A program made the position numbers and the translations under genes. Positions 53,737-63,746 of a stretch of 64,000 nucleotides of DNA are shown here, piece by piece. The notes beneath the pieces were generated by a model. That model saw only the letters and a program-made list of their open reading frames with translations. It had not been told where the DNA came from and made no database searches. Source of the DNA: Alphaproteobacteria bacterium (GTDB taxonomy: Bacteria; Pseudomonadota; Alphaproteobacteria; RF32; CAG-239); the NCBI GenBank assembly GCA_045644765.1, contig JAZRHM010000029.1:4972-68971 (forward strand), read 5' to 3'. The first letter of the stretch is position 1, and each line of letters starts with the position of its first letter.

Positions 53737-54888
53737 CTACATATTAATCAATTCGTTATAAACTGCAATAGTTTTTTCACACATAATTTGCTTGGTGAAA
53801 TTATTTTTTACATATTCTATTGCTGCTTTGCCTATTTTTTCACGTTCTTTTGATGAAAGTTCCAAAGCCCATGTTAAAGCTTCGGCCAATGAATTAGCAT
53901 CACCGGATATGAAGTGCTTTCCTGTTTTACCGTCAACCAAATTTTCTAATGAACCGCCGATGTTTGATGCAACAACAATTCGTCCCATGGCTTCGCCTTC
54001 AGCTGCGATTCTGCCGAAAGCCTCAGGATCAGTAGATGCTGATACCACAATGTCGGATATCATCATCATGGCCGGAACATCAGAGACATGTTTTATAAAA
54101 GAAAATCTTCCTTCCATACCTTTGTTTACAATTGTTTCTTTTAATTCTTCGGTGTAGTATGTGCGTCCTTGATCATCTCCGACAAAAACGCAGAAGAAAT
54201 CTTTTTCTTTTATTTTCTCTAATGCTTCAATTAAAAGCTTTTGCCCCTTCCATCTGGTTAATCTGCCGATAAGCAAAATAATCGGTTTATCTTCAGGTAA
54301 ATGATTTTCTTCCATAAGTTTAATCATTCTTTCGGCACTGACATTGTTTACGTCAAAATTTTCCATATTGACGCAACGATGAATCAGCCTTATTTTATCT
54401 TCATTACATTTGTAGTTTTTTAAAATATGCTGTTTGATATGGTTGGAAATTGCAATAACCAGATCGCCATAGGTCATCACTTTATTGTAAGCTTTTTTGA
54501 TGCCTTTGGGACCCAACCCGTATGTCCCATGAAATGTGGTTAAATATTTTGCACCTGTTTTTTTTGCAGCCCAGTATGCACTCCAAGCCGGAGCGCGAGA
54601 GCGAGCATGAACAATATTGATATCGTTTTCCTTTATGATTTTTACCAAACGACGATAGTTTAGCCAAAGTTTAATAGGATTTTTTGTTTTTAACGGTAAT
54701 TTGAAGTGTGGTACTTTTATTCTATCTAAGTTATATGCCATGCGACCACCGGCAGAGGCAACAAAATTTTTTATTCCTTGTTTTTGAAGTTCTGTCGCAA
54801 TTTCGATAGTTCCTAATTCTACACCACCTTGATTAAGTTCAGGTAAAACTTGTAAAACTATCGGTTTTTTATCTTTATTTTTCTTCAT
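53737..54888 (-). CDS. GT-B glycosyltransferase (family 1/4)
   Basis: C-terminal EAFGRIAAEGEAMGRIVVASNIGGSLENLVDGKTG GT1 motif. Confidence 0.75.
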   Translation of the reverse strand: MKKNKDKKPIVLQVLPELNQGGVELGTIEIATELQKQGIKNFVASAGGRMAYNLDRIKVPHFKLPLKTKNPIKLWLNYRRLVKIIKENDINIVHARSRAPAWSAYWAAKKTGAKYLTTFHGTYGLGPKGIKKAYNKVMTYGDLVIAISNHIKQHILKNYKCNEDKIRLIHRCVNMENFDVNNVSAERMIKLMEENHLPEDKPIILLIGRLTRWKGQKLLIEALEKIKEKDFFCVFVGDDQGRTYYTEELKETIVNKGMEGRFSFIKHVSDVPAMMMISDIVVSASTDPEAFGRIAAEGEAMGRIVVASNIGGSLENLVDGKTGKHFISGDANSLAEALTWALELSSKEREKIGKAAIEYVKNNFTKQIMCEKTIAVYNELINM

Positions 54889-54997
54889 TTTAGTTTTTTA
54901 ACCTCGTTTAGTTGCTATTAATTGAACGCAGTTTAAAGCAAACCCGAATAAAACTCAAAGTTTTACTCAGGCTTATGCACACAGATTTGGGTTAAAA

Positions 54998-55321
54998 TCA
55001 GTTTAATGTTTCGGATATGTTTTCTTGAATTGATATTTCTGTTGCCGGATTCTGCTCCAAATTAGGATTAGAGTTGATTGGAGCAACTTCTACATCGTTA
55101 TCTTCAGGTAATGGAATAAAGTCGCCGGTTTGATTGGGTAAAGTGTTTTGTTGCTCTTGCGTGGGAGCTTGGTTTGGGGTGGGAGCTGAGTAAGTAACTT
55201 GCTCTATGTATGTGTCTGTGTTTGATGATGGCAACATATTGTTTCCTGCTTGAGAAGAGTATATCCCCAGTCCTCCTAAAACCAATATCATCGCACCGGT
55301 TAAATAGTAAAATTTATACAT
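54998..55321 (-). CDS. Small secreted/anchored Gln/Asn/Pro-rich protein
   Basis: N-terminal hydrophobic helix then low-complexity. Confidence 0.4.
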   Translation of the reverse strand: MYKFYYLTGAMILVLGGLGIYSSQAGNNMLPSSNTDTYIEQVTYSAPTPNQAPTQEQQNTLPNQTGDFIPLPEDNDVEVAPINSNPNLEQNPATEISIQENISETLN

Positions 55322-55387
55322 GATATTAACTCCTTAAAATAAAAATACAAAAAAAGATGTATGAAATATTTTTTTCTTTTCAATCTG

Positions 55388-56707
55388 TCATAAAGAATTA
55401 TTCGCTTCTCTGATAACAGGTTTAAAAAACTCTACCATGTAACTTAGAGCGTCAAATATGTGGCCTAAATATAATTTATCATTATCGTCTGATATTTGCG
55501 AAGGTGTTGCTTCATCAATGAGGGATGTTCCTTCTTTGAATTTTAAATTTTTCATATTGTAAATAAGCCATTTGCATTTCGGGTGAACTAAAATATTACG
55601 TTCGCCTGTGTCTGTATATACTTGTTTGTTAAAGGCGTTGATTCTGGCTAAAATTGGCGGATTAAACGAGCGTAAATTTAATCTGTAACGATATCCTGCT
55701 TTGGCTAATGTGTTAATGATAATTGCATAATCAGAATATCTTGATTGGGTTTTGCGATATTTGCCTGATGCATCGCCGCAAATCTGTATGGTGCCTTTAA
55801 ATTTTTCCGGAGGATAACGTCGAATAAATTCGTCGACAACATCTTGAGTTATTACGTTATTTAGAACAAGCTCGTCAAAAACAAAAAATTTTTTACCATC
55901 AAAGTGTGCCAGTGTTGACATGAAAGGATTGACGTTAAAATCTAAACTCCAATATATGTCTAAATCAGGTACATATCTGATTTGTTCGTTGATGTTGGCT
56001 GTCGACCAGTATTTAACAACTTTTACACTGTTTGCGTTTTTAGGTTTATTCAGATAATCTTGTTCGTATTCCTCCGGCTTGTTTTTTTTAATCAGTTCGG
56101 CATATTCAAGAAATTTATCAGACAGAATTCCGAGCTTTTCTATTTCCGGATAATTTACTTCAATAAAAAAAGTTTTTTGTGGCGCCTTCATATTTTCGTA
56201 ATCGAGGAATAGTGCACTTTCAACCGGTAATTCATCGCTTATGCGGTTGTAAATTACAATAAGTATAACGCCTTTTTTTCTGATGGTTTTGAGTAAAATT
56301 TGCCAAACGGCTCTGCTTATCATTTGCGCTTCGTCAATGATTAATATATCTATTTGAGCAAGCCCTTTTAGGTTTTCTCTTGCGTTTTGGTTTTTATCTT
56401 GTAAGCCCATAAAAAATAGTTCAGATTCTGTTTTGTTGTTCGTGATTCTGTTTTTTGTATATTCAAATCCTTTGTTTGTAAATTCGGTGTTGATTAATTC
56501 TTTGAATTCAATGTATAAACTTTCTTCTGTAGATATTTTTGTTTCTCTAAATACGGCTACTCTTTTTTTTGTTTTCATCATTTGGCATAAAATGGCTCGG
56601 CAGACGTGTCCGGTTTTTAAGGATCCTCTGCCTCCGGTTAATGCAAAAGTATCGTATTTGCCGTTATCCATTTGCAGAAGTGGTAAATATTTTTTATAAA
56701 ATATCAT
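55388..56707 (-). CDS. Phage terminase large subunit
   Basis: Walker A ALTGGRGSLKTGH, Walker B ILIIDEAQM, C-terminal nuclease-like region. Confidence 0.75.
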   Translation of the reverse strand: MIFYKKYLPLLQMDNGKYDTFALTGGRGSLKTGHVCRAILCQMMKTKKRVAVFRETKISTEESLYIEFKELINTEFTNKGFEYTKNRITNNKTESELFFMGLQDKNQNARENLKGLAQIDILIIDEAQMISRAVWQILLKTIRKKGVILIVIYNRISDELPVESALFLDYENMKAPQKTFFIEVNYPEIEKLGILSDKFLEYAELIKKNKPEEYEQDYLNKPKNANSVKVVKYWSTANINEQIRYVPDLDIYWSLDFNVNPFMSTLAHFDGKKFFVFDELVLNNVITQDVVDEFIRRYPPEKFKGTIQICGDASGKYRKTQSRYSDYAIIINTLAKAGYRYRLNLRSFNPPILARINAFNKQVYTDTGERNILVHPKCKWLIYNMKNLKFKEGTSLIDEATPSQISDDNDKLYLGHIFDALSYMVEFFKPVIREANNSL

Positions 56708-57111
56708 TTTTCCTCCTTGATTTTTTCTTGCTGTTTATCAAGTACATATTTCAAGATTTTATGTAATGAATGCGTGTATTTTGAGTATAATCTGCTTCGA
56801 GAATAACTAAATTTTGCAGTAAGTGTTTTCCATGAGTGGCCGGAATTTCTGACAAGAATTAAGTTGCGTTCGTCATAATCAACTTGTTTTAGCCAGTCTT
56901 CCAAAACTTCGTCCATATCATCTATTTCTTCAGGTAAAGGGGAAGTGTAAGATTTGCTTTTGTTAAGCATTATGGATTTAGTTTCTTCGTTTACATATGC
57001 TGGCCAATGAGATGAAATTTTTTTAGGACCGTCTGTTGGAAAAGTGCGTAAAATTCTTAAAGCTTTTTTTATTTCAAATTCTACGTCTTGTATATTTCTA
57101 ACTGGTTTCAT
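56704..57111 (-). CDS. Putative terminase small subunit / DNA-binding protein (4-nt overlap with terminase large gene)
   Basis: Position and C-terminal HTH-like SRSRLYSKYTHSL. Confidence 0.35.
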   Translation of the reverse strand: MKPVRNIQDVEFEIKKALRILRTFPTDGPKKISSHWPAYVNEETKSIMLNKSKSYTSPLPEEIDDMDEVLEDWLKQVDYDERNLILVRNSGHSWKTLTAKFSYSRSRLYSKYTHSLHKILKYVLDKQQEKIKEEK

Positions 57112-57247
57112 ATGATCTCCTTAATATATTAAAATTAATATCCAATATTTATATATTAATATTAATCAAGTCAAATATTAAAAATAATATTTGCACAATT
57201 ATTATGTTTAATATACATTGTATGCAATATCATATAAGGAGAAAGTT

Positions 57248-57952
57248 ATGGCAGATATTGAAGAAATCAGAAGAAAAGTAGATAAGCTTATAGCTGAAAA
57301 GGGTTTAAATTATCGTGATGCTTCGCTGAAAATAGGTAGAAAAGATTCGTATCTTCAGCAATATGTTAAATATGGATATCCTCGTCGCTTAAAAGAAATA
57401 GACCGTATGCGTTTAGCAAAACTTTTAGACGTTGATGATACGGAAATTATGGATGATGAGGTAATTGCATCAAAGACTATCGGATCAGCCAATGCAACTC
57501 TTAATGCAATATCAGATATCATTAAGGTTAGTTGTTCGTCAGAAGGTGATGTTATAGCAATTGATGTTTTGGCATCACAAATTGATGAAACTACAGATTT
57601 TTATAATAATGTTATAGGACGTCATCTTTTGAACAGAAATGTTTTGGAAGATTTTGGAACAAGTGATGTTAAAAATGTAAAAATCGTAAAAATATTAAAC
57701 GACGTTATGAAACCGACGATTAATTCCGGTGACAGTGTATGGTTTGATTGTTCTTATAAGCATCCGGAATCTGATGGCCTTTATCTGTTGCGTTCCGGAA
57801 GGGAGTTGTGTGTGAAACGCATTCAGACTTCTCCTATTGATGGTGTGGTCGAAATTGCTTCTGATAATGGACAATATAAGTCATATCAAGCAACTGACAG
57901 ACTATCGGTTAATGTTTTAGGTAAAGTCTTATTCGTTTTTCATAAACTTTAA
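57248..57952 (+). CDS. Phage CI/LexA-like repressor: N-terminal HTH + C-terminal S24 peptidase domain
   Basis: HTH (LNYRDASLKIGRKDSYLQQYV), S24 motifs (NSGDS Ser, CVKRI Lys); AAGGAG RBS. Confidence 0.7.
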   Translation: MADIEEIRRKVDKLIAEKGLNYRDASLKIGRKDSYLQQYVKYGYPRRLKEIDRMRLAKLLDVDDTEIMDDEVIASKTIGSANATLNAISDIIKVSCSSEGDVIAIDVLASQIDETTDFYNNVIGRHLLNRNVLEDFGTSDVKNVKIVKILNDVMKPTINSGDSVWFDCSYKHPESDGLYLLRSGRELCVKRIQTSPIDGVVEIASDNGQYKSYQATDRLSVNVLGKVLFVFHKL

Positions 57953-58076
57953 TTTTAAAAACTATCCACAGATCTTATCCTTGAAAAACAAAAGGATAAG
58001 ATCTTTTTTATATATCCCGTATATTAATATTGATATATTAAAATAATGTATTAATATTCATATATCGGAGGTGAGT

Positions 58077-58397
58077 ATGAAAACACTTGATGAATTAGAA
58101 AAAGAGATATCTTGCTTAAAAGAACAAATAATGTGTCAAGAAATAGGTAATGATTCTTATTATTTATCAGCATTATATCATGAGCAACTCTTAAGGCTTG
58201 AAGCTTTAGAGGAAGAAGCTAGTGTCTTAAGCGGTAAAAGTGTGCCGATTGAGGTGGATTTTGATAAATATCCACCAGAAAAATGTTCGCTTCTAAAAAA
58301 AATTGCTGAGCAGAACGGAATATGTTTTGCAAATAATTACAAAGACTTAAATGTGGATGATTTGAAGTTTTTGAACCATCTTTGCAAAAAAAATTAA
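58077..58397 (+). CDS. Hypothetical coiled-coil protein (107 aa)
   Basis: GGAGG RBS; no motif. Confidence 0.4.
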   Translation: MKTLDELEKEISCLKEQIMCQEIGNDSYYLSALYHEQLLRLEALEEEASVLSGKSVPIEVDFDKYPPEKCSLLKKIAEQNGICFANNYKDLNVDDLKFLNHLCKKN

Positions 58398-58460
58398 AAA
58401 AAATAAAAATTATACTGGACATTGATGTTTTTTTACAGTATAAGACACTCTGTTACCGAT

Positions 58461-58536
<76 letters not shown>

Positions 58537-58618: not shown

Positions 58619-59395
58619 TTATCTGGATATGAGATTTTGCTGTTTTAACAGTAACTGATTGTTTTGCTGAGGTGTTTTGATATAAGAAATTAAGTCGTCA
58701 ATGGATGTTATAGGTAAAGAATGAAAATTTGCTTCACTTTTGGTAACTGAAGATAGATTATGCGCATCAGAGTTGTAGAATTTGTTTTTTAGTTTTAGTT
58801 CATCAGGAATAGCTCTATCCCAACGCAGTTTTTTATCAATGTTTGTTTCATCGGTAAAACGATATCTGTTACCGTTTTGAAATTCGTAGCCATCAATAAT
58901 TTCATATATTTGAGTTAATTCCCATTGTGGTGTACGCTCCAAATTAGGATGGCATAAAACAGTTGCCGTATCATTTCTATTTTGTTTTACTATATTAAGT
59001 AGATGTGTAATTATTTTTTGTTTATATTGAAGTGTTTGACCGTATTTTTTCTTTTCATTTAGATCCATGTTATCAATAAACTCAAAAATCTTACGTGTTG
59101 CCTTTTCCCCAAAAATAAGAATTTCTTCTTCATAAAGGGCGAGTTCTATCCCTTGGATACAAGGAAAATTAAGTTCTTTTGATATGTTTTCTAATTCAGA
59201 TGTTTGTTGTTGAAACTTTTCATAGGACTGTATACTCAAAGAATATGCATTACCAACAGATAACGGACATACATGGTCTGTGACCACAAATGCAGAAAAA
59301 CCTTCCTTTTGGTGTTCTTTTGCCATCTCAAACAGATTGGCTCCATCAGAATAGTGGCTATGAGAATGTATGTTTATTTTCATATTTATTTCCAT
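58619..59395 (-). CDS. PHP-domain (polymerase/histidinol-phosphatase-like) phosphoesterase
   Basis: N-terminal INIHSHSHYSDG and downstream His/Asp metal ligands. Confidence 0.65.
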   Translation of the reverse strand: MEINMKINIHSHSHYSDGANLFEMAKEHQKEGFSAFVVTDHVCPLSVGNAYSLSIQSYEKFQQQTSELENISKELNFPCIQGIELALYEEEILIFGEKATRKIFEFIDNMDLNEKKKYGQTLQYKQKIITHLLNIVKQNRNDTATVLCHPNLERTPQWELTQIYEIIDGYEFQNGNRYRFTDETNIDKKLRWDRAIPDELKLKNKFYNSDAHNLSSVTKSEANFHSLPITSIDDLISYIKTPQQNNQLLLKQQNLISR

Positions 59396-59443: not shown

Positions 59444-60982
59444 TTAATCTCTTGTTTTAAACTCACTATTAGTGTTTGTTGGTATATTTTTTTCTTTATT
59501 ATTATTTTGAGCAATTGCAGATTCTACAATTTTTCTGGTTTCCGGACTAACTTTTTCTAACATTGAAATATCAAAATTAAATCCGTCGATTTTCATGTTA
59601 AATTTCAGATTTGCAGAATAGAATCTTAATTTTGTATCCAAACTGACCGTATCGTTAAAACGAATATTTTTTTGACCTGTTTTTTTAGCGTTTGCAATTA
59701 TATCATCATAAAAAGTGTTTTCAGTTATATCTGTTTTTTTGGAAATAGTTATTTTATTTTTATTATGATAAGTTACTTTTTGCTTGAATTTATCTTCAAC
59801 AGTAAGTGAGCATTTATTTTTAGAAACATCATAGTGATAGGTTGATGCTCTATAAAAGTTTTCCAGTTTTCCAATCCAATTTGTATCTTGATTCAGTTTA
59901 TGTTTTAATTCCTGAATTTTATCTTGAGGATCTGTTATACCTTGCGTTTTAACAGGGGTATGATTCTTGTTATCAACACATTCATCAACTGTTAATATTG
60001 TTTTTTCAATGTCAGATGAATTATGCAAACCGGAATGTAAAATTTCTTCTGCCAACCCATCTTTAAGGCCACCAACAGTTGTTATAACGGGAGTAAAATT
60101 TAAGTTTGGGCAAAATCTTTTGTTATAAAGTTTCTTGAACACATTTGAGATAATATGACAATGACCGATGAAACCGTCGATTCTGTCTTTGCTAATGTCA
60201 TATTCTTGCATAATTTGATTTTTGTTTTCAGCATTGTTGGCAATGTCTTGTAATTTAAATTGCAGATTTTTAAGCGACATTTTCTGCTGTTTTGCCATGG
60301 TTACATAAGCATCAAATTTTTGAGTTTTATATTGATGAGAAATAACTTTTGAAACAGCAGTAGAGTTAACTACACAAATTAAAGGATCTTCAATGCTATG
60401 ATTTGCAGATGATATTTGTTTTATAAAGTCAGTTATTTTTTTATCGAAAATAGCTTTATCGTTGCCGTATTTTTTGGAACCTAGGGGTAAAGAAACCGTA
60501 CTGACAATTGACGGACCTTTTGATGTTAAATTAACCAGTGAGATTTCCGTGCTGCCACCTCCGCTTTCAACGTATAAAACATTTTTTGCAGATAACAGAA
60601 CGTCTTTGTTTTTATCCCTATGTGCAGGTATGCTTTTTAAACCGCCAATAACTGATAAATAGGCTTCTCTTTTTGGAGATATAACATGAATTTTTCGACC
60701 TAATTTTTCCAAAATTATTTTTTTGATAGCGTCTTGGTTAGATGTTTGACGAAACGCTTCTGTAGCACAAATATATAACTTGTCTTTACTAATGCCATAT
60801 TGTTCTGTTAAATCAGCAAACTCTGTTACCAATGAGACAACCTCGTTTTCATTAAGGTCGTTTGCCAAAGATTGTTTTAACATCTTATTTTTAGGAGTAA
60901 TATAGCGACTATTATTATATATTTTACATTTTACGGCATTGGTTCCTATATCAATAACCGCAAAATTATTATTTTTAGACAT
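59444..60982 (-). CDS. Ppx/GppA-family phosphatase with ~200-aa C-terminal extension
   Basis: N-terminal AVIDIGTNAVKCKIY actin-like ATPase motif typical of Ppx/GppA. Confidence 0.6.
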   Translation of the reverse strand: MSKNNNFAVIDIGTNAVKCKIYNNSRYITPKNKMLKQSLANDLNENEVVSLVTEFADLTEQYGISKDKLYICATEAFRQTSNQDAIKKIILEKLGRKIHVISPKREAYLSVIGGLKSIPAHRDKNKDVLLSAKNVLYVESGGGSTEISLVNLTSKGPSIVSTVSLPLGSKKYGNDKAIFDKKITDFIKQISSANHSIEDPLICVVNSTAVSKVISHQYKTQKFDAYVTMAKQQKMSLKNLQFKLQDIANNAENKNQIMQEYDISKDRIDGFIGHCHIISNVFKKLYNKRFCPNLNFTPVITTVGGLKDGLAEEILHSGLHNSSDIEKTILTVDECVDNKNHTPVKTQGITDPQDKIQELKHKLNQDTNWIGKLENFYRASTYHYDVSKNKCSLTVEDKFKQKVTYHNKNKITISKKTDITENTFYDDIIANAKKTGQKNIRFNDTVSLDTKLRFYSANLKFNMKIDGFNFDISMLEKVSPETRKIVESAIAQNNNKEKNIPTNTNSEFKTRD

Positions 60983-61151
60983 ATTACACTATCCTGTATT
61001 GTTCTTTTTAATAATATATTTATAGCAGAAACTGTTCAAATAATCAATACTAAATTATACGTGAATATAGCGTGAAAATTATATTTAATATGTTAAAAAT
61101 AACTCCCAAATTCAAATACAAAAAAGCCACCTTTATGGTGGCTTTTTTGTT

Positions 61152-61315
61152 TGGTCGGGACTATAGGATTGACTTCGTCGAAACTGCACGGTTGCTTCGC
61201 ATCGGCATACTTCCGTCTGCCTACCGTTTGTTTTCAAACCTACTTTTGTATGTTCGAACCCTTAAGCCCGCCTTACAAACAAAAAACCTCACCACAAGGG
61301 TGAGGTCTTTATGTT
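61152..61315. repeat. att-like repeat unit U1: begins with 19 nt identical to tRNA-Pro 3' end (tggtcgggactataggatt) and ends with hairpin terminator; near-identical to 63506-63669
   Basis: Direct sequence comparison. Confidence 0.8.
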
Positions 61316-61577
61316 TGGTCGGATTGACCCCTACTAAATTATAAAAAAATACCCCATTTTATATAACATGGTTTTTTTGTCCTTTTTTCAGAGTGTTATG
61401 AGAGAGTGGTCGAACTTTCTCATCCATACTGATGGGGTTGACTAAATTTACTGCCCACTTGTTTTGTAAAAAAATTTTGTTGTTTTTCAATGAAATACAC
61501 TGACCACTAGGTTGTAACTTGACTTTTTTATTTTTCCAAGCATTGGTGTAAAGCAGATTATTAAAAAAGGAGATGCA

Positions 61578-61649
61578 ATGTCAAAAGAAGCAGAAAAATT
61601 AATTAAAATTATCCTGCCTGATTTATTTAAGTATTTGTATATACAATAA
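61578..61649 (+). CDS. Small ORF (23 aa, MSKEAEKLIKIILPDLFKYLYIQ) with AAGGAG RBS, 56 nt upstream of radical-SAM gene
   Basis: Manual translation; speculative. Confidence 0.25.
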   Translation: MSKEAEKLIKIILPDLFKYLYIQ

Positions 61650-61705
61650 AAAAGTATTGAAATTAGATAAAAATAGGTGTATAGTCCTAGTAAGGAGGTA
61701 AAAAT

Positions 61706-62713
61706 ATGACAAAATATGTTTCGTGGATTACGATTAACAGAGCATGTAATTTGCGTTGCAAATGGTGTTATGCTCAATCATCCAAATTTTCCAAACAAGA
61801 CGATATGACTATGGAATGTTTTTTAAAAATTATGAAGGTTATATCTGCTCCTATGGATGTGAAGAAGATTGTTTTTATTGGTGGAGAACCTACAATTCAC
61901 CCAAATTTTATAGAAATGCTTTCTCTTGCTAAAAAAACGATAGAAAAGGTTTCTCTTATAACGAATGGTATTAAATTTAAAGATATTGATTTTACTAAAG
62001 AAGTTAAAAAAGAAGGTTTGACTTGGGTAACTTTGTCATTAAAGGCGCCTAATGACCAGTTGTATAAAGATTGGACCGGTGTTTCAGCCATGTCTGCGGT
62101 CATTCAAGCAATCGCTAATTTAAAAAAAGAAAATATTGGTTTAAGTGTTTCTTTGGTTTTAAGTTCAGAGTTATATCGTTATATTGATGAATTGGCATAT
62201 ATTTTGCATGATTTAAAAATTGATAAGGTCTATATTGATAGTGAGCGACCTGTTTTAATAGGAGATCAGACTGTTTATAAACAAAGTATTAAAGATATTA
62301 CATCTGGTTACCATAAAACGGTAGATGCATTGGAAAAATATAATATTCCTTATATTTTTAAAGCATCCCTACCATTTTGTTTAATCCCTGAAGATTTTGT
62401 GAATAGAATGCGGAAAGATGGTCGGTTGCAGGCAGGTTGCCAAATACTAGCCGGAAATGGATTAATTTTTAATACAAATGGTGATTTACTTGCATGTAAT
62501 CAAATTTGCCAAGATCCATTGGCTCAATTTGATAAGGATTTTAATTCTGCAGAGTCATTGAAATCATTATTGAAATCAGATAATATTGTTAATTTTTATA
62601 AGATGATTGCTTCTTATCCACATGAAAAATGTTCTGGATGTAAGGATTGGAAATATTGTGGTGGTGGATGTCGTGTCAATTGGTTATATAAAAATATGTT
62701 AGATAATGTATAA
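61706..62713 (+). CDS. Radical SAM / SPASM-domain peptide-modifying enzyme
   Basis: CNLRCKWCY (CX3CX2C) at N-terminus, GGEPT, C-terminal CSGCKDWKYCGGGCR SPASM cluster. Confidence 0.8.
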   Translation: MTKYVSWITINRACNLRCKWCYAQSSKFSKQDDMTMECFLKIMKVISAPMDVKKIVFIGGEPTIHPNFIEMLSLAKKTIEKVSLITNGIKFKDIDFTKEVKKEGLTWVTLSLKAPNDQLYKDWTGVSAMSAVIQAIANLKKENIGLSVSLVLSSELYRYIDELAYILHDLKIDKVYIDSERPVLIGDQTVYKQSIKDITSGYHKTVDALEKYNIPYIFKASLPFCLIPEDFVNRMRKDGRLQAGCQILAGNGLIFNTNGDLLACNQICQDPLAQFDKDFNSAESLKSLLKSDNIVNFYKMIASYPHEKCSGCKDWKYCGGGCRVNWLYKNMLDNV

Positions 62714-62856
62714 TATGGATATGGGGCGATCATTGAATGATGGTGAAAAAATTGTTAAATTAAATGCTATAGCGATCATAAATAGATAGTTTATTCCTAT
62801 TGTTATAGTGTTTGTATAACGGATTTCTAGTTATTTTTGTGAAAGGAGGTGATATT

Positions 62857-63021
62857 ATGAGTGCACAAGAATTGTTTAGATTAATGTACAAAGGTCAATC
62901 ATTGAATACTGATGAAAGAATTGTTGGTTTAAATGCTAAATTTAATATCAGTGATGAACAGTGTGGTAATGACTGTGACTGTGGAGACAGTGAATGTAAT
63001 GAATGTAGTGACTGTGGATAA
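62857..63021 (+). CDS. Cys/Asp-rich precursor-like peptide (54 aa; MSAQELFRLMYKGQSLNTDERIVGLNAKFNISDEQCGNDCDCGDSECNECSDCG)
   Basis: GGAGG RBS 6 nt upstream; 8 Cys in last 19 residues; followed by strong terminator. Confidence 0.6.
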   Translation: MSAQELFRLMYKGQSLNTDERIVGLNAKFNISDEQCGNDCDCGDSECNECSDCG

Positions 63022-63030
63022 TTAATACAA

Positions 63031-63066
63031 ATAAAGCGCTGATTTTATCAGCGCTTTATTTTTTTA
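63031..63066 (+). terminator. Terminator after precursor peptide (aaagcgctgattttatcagcgcttt + T-run)
   Basis: Read directly. Confidence 0.7.
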
Positions 63067-63326
63067 TGCTCACGAATGTAACGCTGTTCAGTTAAATCAA
63101 AAAAAGACCACAATAGAAGTAGCTTGGATTTGTGAAATGGCTTGCGCACATTTCATTCCACACTGTTGTTCGGGACCGCCTGGCGGCGTCAGGTTGAATC
63201 TGACGGCATAAAGCCACCATCTTCAACTTCGAACCCAACGCCCACTCTTGCTCGTGACCTGTGGACATCAAATTTCGCTACCCGCTAGCCATAAAAAAAA
63301 CCGCCAAATGGCGGTCCTTTTATGGC

Positions 63327-63505
63327 TGGTCGGATTGACTAGATTATTTCGCTTCGCTACATGCTCGGCGCTCATCGGCTTTGCCGACCGGCACACCCCC
63401 GTGAGCCTTTCGCTTGAAGTGCAAACTAGCTTTCTCGCTAGTTCGAACCTAGATCCGAAAATCAAATAACAAAAAACCTCACCACAAGGGTGAGGTCTTT
63501 ATGTT
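63327..63505. repeat. att-like unit X: TGGTCGG core + GC-rich diverged homolog of U unit, ends with same cctcaccacaagggtgagg hairpin
   Basis: Direct comparison with U1/U2. Confidence 0.6.
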
Positions 63506-63669
63506 TGGTCGGGACTATAGGATTGACTTCGTCGAAACTGCACGGTTGCTTCGCATCGGCATACTTCCGTCTGCCTACCGTTTGTTTTCAAACCTACTTT
63601 TGTATGTTTGAACCCTTAAGCCCGCCTTACAAACAAAAAACCTCACCACAAGGGTGAGGTCTTTATGTT
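63506..63669. repeat. att-like repeat unit U2 (164 bp, 1 mismatch vs U1), abutting tRNA-Pro
   Basis: Direct comparison. Confidence 0.8.
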
Positions 63670-63746
63670 TGGTCGGGACTATAGGATTCGAACCTACGAC
63701 ATCTTGCTCCCAAAGCAAGCGCTCTACCAGGCTGAGCTAAGTCCCG
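63670..63746 (-). tRNA. tRNA-Pro (TGG), CCA encoded
   Basis: Manual cloverleaf of reverse complement: acceptor CGGGACT/AGTCCCG, anticodon loop TTTGGGA, T-loop TTCGAAT. Confidence 0.85.

Follow-up and report, generated by a model that had tools for sequence, protein, structure and literature searches.

Near the right-hand end of a 64,000-nucleotide stretch of DNA from an Alphaproteobacteria bacterium (assembly GCA_045644765.1, contig JAZRHM010000029.1, positions 4,972 to 68,971; the whole stretch is called the window here), a gene for a radical S-adenosylmethionine (SAM) enzyme with a SPASM domain is followed, on the same strand, by a gene for a short peptide with a cysteine-rich C-terminus. 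Together they most likely form a minimal two-gene cassette for a peptide made on ribosomes and modified after translation (a RiPP), belonging to a previously unnamed family that recurs in diverse uncultured bacteria and archaea. The linkage of the genes, the leader and core layout of the peptide and the class of the enzyme make it very likely that the two are a maturase and its substrate. As for the reaction, by analogy with characterized enzymes there is about an even chance that the leader-guided maturase forms intramolecular thioethers between cysteines of the core and carbons of nearby residues, chiefly Asp and Glu. Radical-SAM/SPASM RiPP systems are known as such; what is new is not a category but a wide family without a name, in which maturases without a RiPP recognition element (RRE) are combined with precursors built on a repeated 'C-D-C' unit.

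The enzyme, the peptide and their family

A search of 5.8 billion proteins yielded 68 full-length relatives of the enzyme, none of which carries an informative name, and a profile search that went through all of 1.84 billion representatives yielded 702 relatives at E<=1e-30, which puts the clade at about 700 representatives at 50% identity. When one genome was scanned for each species, 40 more full-length enzyme loci with 20-38% identity were found, and 44 loci were compared in all. The 40 come from Patescibacteria (Saccharibacteria, Kuenen-, Nealson-, Uhr- and Veblenbacteria, Moraniibacteriota), DPANN archaea (Pace- and Woesearchaeota), gut Firmicutes, Bacteroidales, Eggerthellaceae and uncultured Gammaproteobacteria. 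A strict automatic rule, which asks for a small open reading frame (ORF) on the same strand, at most 500 bp from the enzyme gene and ending in a Cys-rich tail that contains C[DN]C, singles out 27 of the 44 loci. By inspection, about 33 have a peptide, with MICDCDPDE and MICDCGPDDEC as minimal cores, and in 10-11 a recognisable peptide is missing. Beside the enzyme gene, peptide-type ORFs occur at 0.68 per kb, and the remainder of these loci has 0.018 per kb on each strand, a difference of about 37-fold; the pairing is therefore not a matter of chance.

In the locus L001, the enzyme of which is 48% identical to that of the window, the peptide is MKIMDFFNLLYKGDFIPSMQEITG...DCDCDCWECNCNCDCNCDCDN, with the F..L.YKG leader of the window peptide and a CDCDC core. 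In L086, with an enzyme that is 50% identical, it reads VSAIEFFESFYKGEHILIAEEVKG...QCGNDCDCGNSDCNDCSDCG, and its last 20 codons differ from those of the window peptide by seven synonymous and three conservative changes (D/N, E/D). At such a distance between the enzymes, this shows purifying selection on the core of the peptide. Peptides from other samples (P0079 with E45D, P0080 with R21I) depart from the window peptide by single conservative substitutions. Conservation of the peptide in homologous loci, on which the first-pass annotation of this DNA had made its proposal depend, is thus found in L086, in L001 and in about 33 of the 44 loci, over several phyla.

Across the family, the leader follows the pattern hydrophobic-x-x-L-x-x-x-(Y)KG, then [AE]P[IV]xxG. 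The cores are unusual in that about one third of their residues are Cys and about one fifth Asp (31% and 19%, the leaders having 1% and 4%) and in their recurring C-D-C unit; Asp is enriched about fivefold in them, and Glu is not. C-x-C accounts for 109 of the 207 Cys-Cys spacings, the middle residue being Asp in 65 cases out of 110 and Asn in 17, and the sole invariant columns in an alignment of 20 peptides are both Cys of one C-x-C. Two loci, L015 and L026, have two precursor genes each. No Pfam or NCBIfam model covers the peptides of the family, that of the window being without an NCBIfam match at E<=0.1, and a profile search with the peptides retrieved only unnamed or 'hypothetical' ones. 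The epithet 'undescribed', given to the system at first, holds in that neither the enzyme clade nor the peptides have a Pfam or NCBIfam family or a name in the source records, and no paper on such an enzyme-peptide system was found.

In the window, the gene for the 54-residue peptide (ATG at 62857, stop codon at 63019-63021) begins 143 nt after the stop codon of the enzyme gene, behind its own ribosome-binding site (RBS), and a strong terminator follows it, all as had been claimed. The product is MSAQELFRLMYKGQSLNTDERIVGLNAKFNISDEQ-CGNDCDCGDSECNECSDCG, a layout that had been called precursor-like and that is borne out by the conservation of both the leader motif and the Cys-rich core across the family. 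Eight Cys had been counted in the core; there are six, at positions 36, 40, 42, 47, 50 and 53. Five of them can be paired with an acidic residue (C36-D39, C40-D41, C42-E46, C47-E49 and C50-D52), with 0-3 residues between and the acid kept as Asp or Glu in L086; only C42-E46 has the spacing CX3E, the remaining gaps being of 0-2 residues. The spacer between the two genes contains a decayed second precursor copy, in which 62715-62769 shares 76% DNA identity with 62884-62938, inside the real leader. This decayed leader copy also occurs in a metagenomic contig, L085, that is considered further on.

The enzyme has both motifs that the first-pass annotation had attributed to a protein of 335 residues, CX3CX2C and, near the C-terminus, CX2CX5CX3C. 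The first of these, C14-X3-C18-X2-C21, is invariant or nearly so in 50 relatives, and the Pfam model Radical_SAM (PF04055) gives 85.9 bits against a cut-off of 29.5, Fer4_12 being matched as well. The NCBIfam SPASM model TIGR04085 matches residues 219-335 with 38.7 bits, for a cut-off of 27; the Pfam SPASM model PF13186 does not match the enzyme, and matches one of the 50 family members. A profile of the 50 relatives aligns over the full length with SuiB, CteB and anSME, the Cys of CX..GX4C and CX2CX5CX3C being in register, and C309, C312, C318 and C322 pair with C317, C320, C326 and C330 of anSME. The SPASM assignment, on which the first-pass annotation had likewise made its proposal depend, therefore stands on proper alignment, Cys for Cys with anSME, CteB and SuiB. 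The AlphaFold2 model of the enzyme is confident, with anSME, ChlB, SkfB, SuiB and CteB as closest folds.

None of the curated NCBIfam equivalog models fits the enzyme. The scores, with cut-offs, are 70/400 bits for GeoRSP, 66/625 for StsB (NF045574), 65.5/340 for PapB (NF047865), 58/381 for PqqE, 52/450 for DynA, 48.5/349 for anSME (TIGR03942) and 12/453 for QhpD, and the model of the SCIFF maturase, TIGR03974, gives 21.9/425 on the SPASM part. An RRE domain was found neither with Pfam nor in the AlphaFold2 model: CX3CX2C begins after 13 residues, the first strand running directly to the cluster loop, and there is no PqqD-like gene beside the enzyme gene. Not all RiPP maturases require an RRE. 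Since this enzyme is without one, a compendium or a mining strategy based on the RRE would miss the family.

Proposed chemistry and competing readings

SPASM domains are marked by a seven-Cys motif, CX9-15GX4C ... CX2CX5CX3C ... C (PMC5715301), and the assignments of auxiliary-cluster ligands used here are taken from that work and from PMC10177961. In anSME, each of the two auxiliary clusters has a full set of Cys ligands, C348 included (PMC5715301). CteB, PapB and Tte1186 have seven auxiliary-cluster Cys, divided 3+4, with a free iron that can bind a Cys of the substrate; in PapB and Tte1186, an open iron of an auxiliary cluster does so (PMC10177961). The C-terminal third of the window enzyme contains C225, C245-X13-G-X4-C264 and C309-X2-C312-X5-C318-X3-C322, seven Cys that are kept across the 50 relatives, the invariant upstream C225 bringing the count to seven. 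The distal SPASM Cys (C348 in anSME, about 18 residues past CX3C, and C432 in CteB) is found at that position in none of the 50 members. In 33 of these, among them every close relative, there is no Cys anywhere past CX3C, and the window enzyme ends 13 residues beyond C322. By analogy, this seven-Cys ligand set suggests that one auxiliary-cluster iron is probably open and thus available to a substrate thiolate.

The following course of events, with its thioether chemistry, acceptor residues and open iron, is what we infer, as is the biological role considered after it. The 54-residue precursor would be translated first, and its conserved N-terminal leader (L..YKG...xxG) would dock on the RRE-less radical-SAM/SPASM enzyme, the CX3CX2C cluster of which would split SAM to give a 5'-deoxyadenosyl radical. 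This radical would remove a hydrogen atom from a core residue, at a carbon of the side chain (or at the alpha carbon); the likeliest residues are the Asp or Glu after each Cys. A core Cys thiolate, held on the auxiliary-cluster iron that has no protein Cys as ligand, would trap the carbon radical to give an intramolecular thioether. Repeated along CGNDCDCGDSECNECSDCG, these steps could lead to up to five small rings, one for each of the Cys-acid pairs named above, and would leave a compact peptide that is acidic and cross-linked. Asp is the candidate for a specific acceptor, since it is Asp and not Glu that is enriched in the cores. PapB forms thioethers between the sulfur of Cys and C-beta of Asp and tolerates Cys-Xn-Asp with n = 0-6 (PMC9413430); adjacent C-D pairs are therefore chemically feasible.

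Several observations weigh against such thioethers. Every model of a characterized thioether synthase family scores far under its cut-off, and the nearest fold to the enzyme model is that of anSME, which oxidises Cys and is not a cross-linker. The extra invariant C225 might complete one auxiliary cluster. Some cores have no acid in their Cys-rich stretch, namely those of L014 and L017 (CGGACGACGACGACGG) and of L033, and the core of L011, CQGQCPCKCACQCDCKCD, has a single acidic residue there, so that Asp is not a universal acceptor. Finally, no peptidase or exporter gene is found in the window, and without these and without an RRE, the handling of the leader and the fate of the product are left unexplained.

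The main alternative, possible though rather unlikely, keeps the same pair of enzyme and substrate and changes the radical chemistry. The reaction would be an anSME-like oxidation of Cys to formylglycine or a thioaldehyde, an epimerisation, the formation of C-C or C-O cross-links or a modification of Asp, and the product would chiefly bind metal, in the manner of a metallothionein or a siderophore. SPASM reactions are diverse, and similarity does not discriminate among them, as the scores with GeoRSP, StsB, PapB, PqqE, DynA and anSME indicate; the cores without acidic acceptors also fit another chemistry. Moreover, peptides that bind metal through thiolates typically show C-x-C and C-C spacing together with Asp, and the family cores resemble metallothioneins in the spacing of their Cys. 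However, the known SPASM enzymes that act on Cys-rich peptides, CteB, PapB, Tte1186, StsB and the sactisynthases, form thioethers (PMC10177961, PMC10288494). The clusters of anSME are fully Cys-ligated (PMC5715301), whereas the window family is one ligand short, and the enrichment in Asp but not in Glu fits a specific acceptor better than a general acidity.

A bolder reading, which we consider unlikely, is a new class of product, consisting of very small, acidic C-D-C peptides with several bridges, in which neighbouring Cys and Asp form tiny rings (or are otherwise modified by radicals). An RRE-less SPASM enzyme would make them and would place the substrate thiol on its second, incompletely ligated auxiliary cluster, and they would have an intracellular metal or redox role and not that of an antibiotic. 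Because the locus holds neither an exporter nor a peptidase, a role that is intracellular or dependent on host proteases is possible, as with the SCIFF peptides. If there is an intracellular C-D-C peptide, it would explain both the retention of the cassette in the minimal genomes of the candidate phyla radiation (CPR) and DPANN and the frequent lack of an exporter. The cassette is small, about 1.4 kb with two genes, and offers a possible new cross-link topology along with a SPASM enzyme that has atypical auxiliary-cluster ligands.

That the cassette is in decay, a remnant without expression or use between the att-like repeats of a degraded element, is improbable. In favour of this, the second precursor copy has already decayed, an integrase, a peptidase and an exporter are missing, and phage remnants lie nearby (55388-56707, 57218-57952). 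In the protein collection, the cluster of the enzyme has one member, although the threonyl-tRNA synthetase (ThrRS) of the lineage has been seen hundreds of times, its nearest cluster comprising 401 member sequences. Against this, both ORFs are intact and have strong RBSs, a promoter-like site precedes and a terminator follows them, the peptide recurs in other samples with single conservative substitutions only, and all cluster-binding Cys of the enzyme are intact. More improbable still is that the peptide is not a substrate but an unmodified Cys-rich carrier of metal or Fe-S, or a redox buffer, alongside a radical-SAM enzyme with another target: the enzyme without an RRE, the window without a peptidase or exporter and the loci without a recognisable peptide would agree with it, but the two genes stay adjacent on the same strand throughout CPR, DPANN, Firmicutes, Bacteroidales and Proteobacteria, where the enzymes are 20-50% identical, the non-Cys leader motif, which has no obvious use in a plain metal-binding peptide, is kept as well, and RRE-less SPASM enzymes that bind peptides are known, for example anSME and ChlB, the radical-SAM domain of which was crystallised with its leader (PDB 9gm3).

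The locus, its surroundings and a partner gene elsewhere

The features of the cassette and of its immediate flanks are listed in Table 1, together with a gene that accompanies the cassette in other loci. The first-pass annotation had also placed before the enzyme a 23-aa ORF with an AAGGAG sequence (61578-61649). Both the ORF and the AAGGAG exist, but membership in the system is unsupported: the ORF is situated upstream of the site that best resembles a promoter, and no ORF like it precedes the cassettes of L001 and L086, the closest homologues. It is probably not a gene. With permissive Rfam thresholds, no known RNA or riboswitch emerged near the cassette or in the GC-rich zone 63100-63700, just tRNAs and chance matches driven by terminators.

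Table 1. Features of the cassette and its flanks in the window, and HExxH proteins in related loci (positions in the respective locus)
Feature	Position	Strand	Basis and remarks
Left copy of 179-nt direct repeat	61144-61322		Repeat families D1, D2, D3; 22 nt equal the tRNA-Pro 3' end, plus terminator
Promoter-like TTGAAA-17-TATAGT	61657-61685	+	Consensus scan, 10/12 matches; consensus match only, 20 nt 5' of enzyme start
RBS AAGGAGG of radical-SAM gene	61692-61698	+	Sequence read; ATG (61706) 7 nt further on
Radical-SAM/SPASM peptide maturase gene, 335 aa	61706-62713	+	ORF, sequence read
Decayed second precursor copy, MYNMDMGRSLNDGEKIVKLNAIAIINR*	62706-62789	+	Direct repeat D4 and translation; leader-like, without Cys core
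RBS AAGGAGG of precursor gene	62843-62849	+	Sequence read; ATG (62857) 7 nt further on
Precursor leader, residues 1-35, MSAQELFRLMYKGQSLNTDERIVGLNAKFNISDEQ	62857-62961	+	Hydrophobic-x-x-L-x-YKG ... [AE]P[IV]xxG motif common to several phyla
Precursor core and stop codon, CGNDCDCGDSECNECSDCG	62962-63021	+	6 Cys, 6 Asp/Glu; C40/C42 invariant in 20-peptide alignment
Bidirectional intrinsic terminator at cassette end	63029-63061		Stem of 15 bp with 5 GC pairs; a T-run on either side
Right copy of 179-nt direct repeat	63498-63676		Repeat analysis; 99% identical, overlaps tRNA-Pro 3' end
tRNA-Pro(TGG), apparent insertion landmark	63670-63746	-	ARAGORN; Rfam tRNA 69.3 bits
HExxH protein, L005	1991-2584
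HExxH protein, L006	1710-2294
HExxH protein, L007	7312-7920
HExxH protein, L009	7234-7824
HExxH protein, L022	7286-7927
HExxH protein, L033	7156-7974
HExxH protein, L034	3579-4157
HExxH protein, L037	1325-2023
HExxH protein, L038	6720-7406
HExxH protein, L039	7246-7923
HExxH protein, L043	7023-7661
HExxH protein, L008, weak	3407-3907		Added by follow-up tblastn

The gene that accompanies the cassette elsewhere encodes a protein of about 160-270 aa with an invariant H-E-x-x-H, K-E, D and R. An all-against-all BLAST comparison of the neighbours in 43 loci found it in 11, to which tblastn adds L008, and it stands directly after the peptide gene in 12 of 44 loci. No other neighbour recurs in this way, a group of histidine kinases in four loci being generic. 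By tblastn, neither the window nor its closest relatives have it; their cassettes consist of the two genes only. The protein has no NCBIfam match and no relative in the PDB by sequence, and the Pfam model SprT-like matches it only below threshold. It could be a leader peptidase (HExxH with a downstream Glu, gluzincin-like) or an HExxH hydroxylase dependent on alpha-ketoglutarate, a kind that a passage of PMC12912966 cites (its reference 51) as fused to radical-SAM enzymes.

Five enzymes of the family (P0238, P0267, P0288, P0301 and P0311; 560-590 aa) have about 220 extra residues at the C-terminus. Considered as fusions with the HExxH protein, they were rejected, their extensions having no HExxH; the extension is perhaps an extra domain for tailoring or for recognition. 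In L001, a gene upstream of the cassette (130-882) encodes a protein of 250 aa, signal-like at its N-terminus and with many paired Cys (CC every 10-20 residues). Downstream come genes for a coupling protein of the VirD4/TraG type and for a pentapeptide-repeat protein, a hint that this cassette may lie in a conjugative element.

The host belongs to an uncultured, low-GC lineage, its ThrRS being 84-91% identical to proteins recorded under the name 'MAG: Alphaproteobacteria bacterium'. In the window, the block of a GT4 glycosyltransferase and ThrRS is followed by a terminase-like gene, a CI-like repressor gene, tRNA-Phe, a PHP-domain gene, a Ppx/GppA-like gene, the cassette and tRNA-Pro(TGG), while different genes lie beyond that block in two relatives; synteny with these, L087 and L088, is lost right after the glycosyltransferase (53737-54888). 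By tRNA-Phe (58461-58536), within 54900-58400, there are phage remnants: an ORF resembling the large subunit of terminase (55388-56707), an ORF of PHROG-6836 (56704-57111) and the CI-like repressor (57218-57952). Two genes on the minus strand lie between tRNA-Phe and the cassette. One (58619-59395) encodes a PHP-domain-like protein of 258 aa, the other (59444-60982) a protein of 512 aa that is Ppx/GppA-like in its N-terminal domain (55 bits) and has no match over its long C-terminal part.

The cassette is bracketed by the 179-nt repeats, each of which includes a terminator and, over 22 nt, the 3' end of tRNA-Pro. The end of the cassette is found again, 99% identical over about 420 nt, in the metagenomic contig L085, where it abuts a different tRNA-Pro (GGG) beside tyrS, and the analogous units there copy the 3' end of that tRNA. 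From the sequences, it looks as if the cassette was inserted repeatedly at tRNA-Pro sites. No integrase was found between the repeats, nor was there one among ORFs of 100 aa or longer at 54.9-63 kb, the scan of which yielded only the terminase-like and CI-like ORFs. There is also no compositional difference from the host: the cassette has 27-33% GC, like its flanks, and only 63100-63700 is GC-rich. Therefore, of the claim that the pair is foreign cargo in a tRNA-Pro island, the repeats of the tRNA-Pro end and a variable, phage-scarred neighbourhood speak in favour, while neither an integrase nor the composition lends support. That the cassette is the cargo of an island is plausible but unproven, and it may be a non-autonomous remnant.

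The zone between the terminator of the peptide gene and tRNA-Pro (63095-63676, minus strand) has about 50% GC in a genome of 30% GC and is made up of three units, each about 140-190 nt long. Two of them, those nearer tRNA-Pro, have a tRNA-like 3' end (..CCGACCA) with which their own 5' end can pair. On the minus strand, an intrinsic terminator comes after every unit, and one unit is duplicated, with 99% identity, to the left of the cassette (61114-61334). In L085, the analogous units lie at 390-790 and copy the 3' end of the tRNA-Pro found there. The units have no Rfam match, and the z-scores of their folds, -1.05 to -2.3, are too weak for a structured RNA. They may be stacked remnants of att sites, or an unrecognised family of small RNAs or mobile elements.

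Comparison with known systems

The likeness to ChlB, a triceptide or cyclophane synthase, is confined in sequence to the radical-SAM core (27 bits); the products of ChlB are C-C cyclophanes between aromatic residues and side chains, and its cores are poor in Cys. The nearest fold, anSME, acts on the active-site Cys or Ser of sulfatases, and no sulfatase gene lies near the cassette. Furthermore, its auxiliary ligand C348 has no equivalent in the window family, and its family model stays far from a match. In the StsB/StsA system, a SPASM enzyme cross-links a core of the C-x-C-x-C type (CxCxCx4GxGxG; PMC10288494), to which the Gly/Ala-type cores of L014 and L017 bear some likeness. StsB was found via its RRE, in contrast to the RRE-less enzymes of the window family, and its model is likewise far from being matched.

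In certain respects, the cassette resembles the SCIFF systems of Clostridia, in which ranthipeptides are made by CteB or Tte1186: one SPASM maturase goes with one six-Cys peptide of about 45-55 aa, a dedicated exporter or peptidase is often lacking, as in the window, and the maturases form thioethers. Nevertheless, the window peptide does not match the SCIFF model TIGR03973, and the enzyme remains far under the cut-off of TIGR03974. In CteB, the radical-SAM Cys start at residue 104 (PMC10177961); it is thus extended at the N-terminus by about 100 residues, which the window enzyme lacks.

PapB and its substrate PapA (freyrasin, Paenibacillus) offer the parallel of a radical-SAM/SPASM maturase that acts on a core rich in both Cys and Asp. 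Here too, the PapB model is far from matched. PapB has an N-terminal extension, its radical-SAM Cys being residues 119, 123 and 126 (PMC10177961), whereas those of the window enzyme are residues 14, 18 and 21. PapA is built of regular CX3D repeats, while C-x-C dominates in the peptides of the window family. The two also differ in the way they come to be one ligand short: in PapB, the distal Cys (C440) is kept and the fourth ligand of auxiliary cluster 1 is missing; in the window family, the distal Cys is missing and there is the extra invariant C225.

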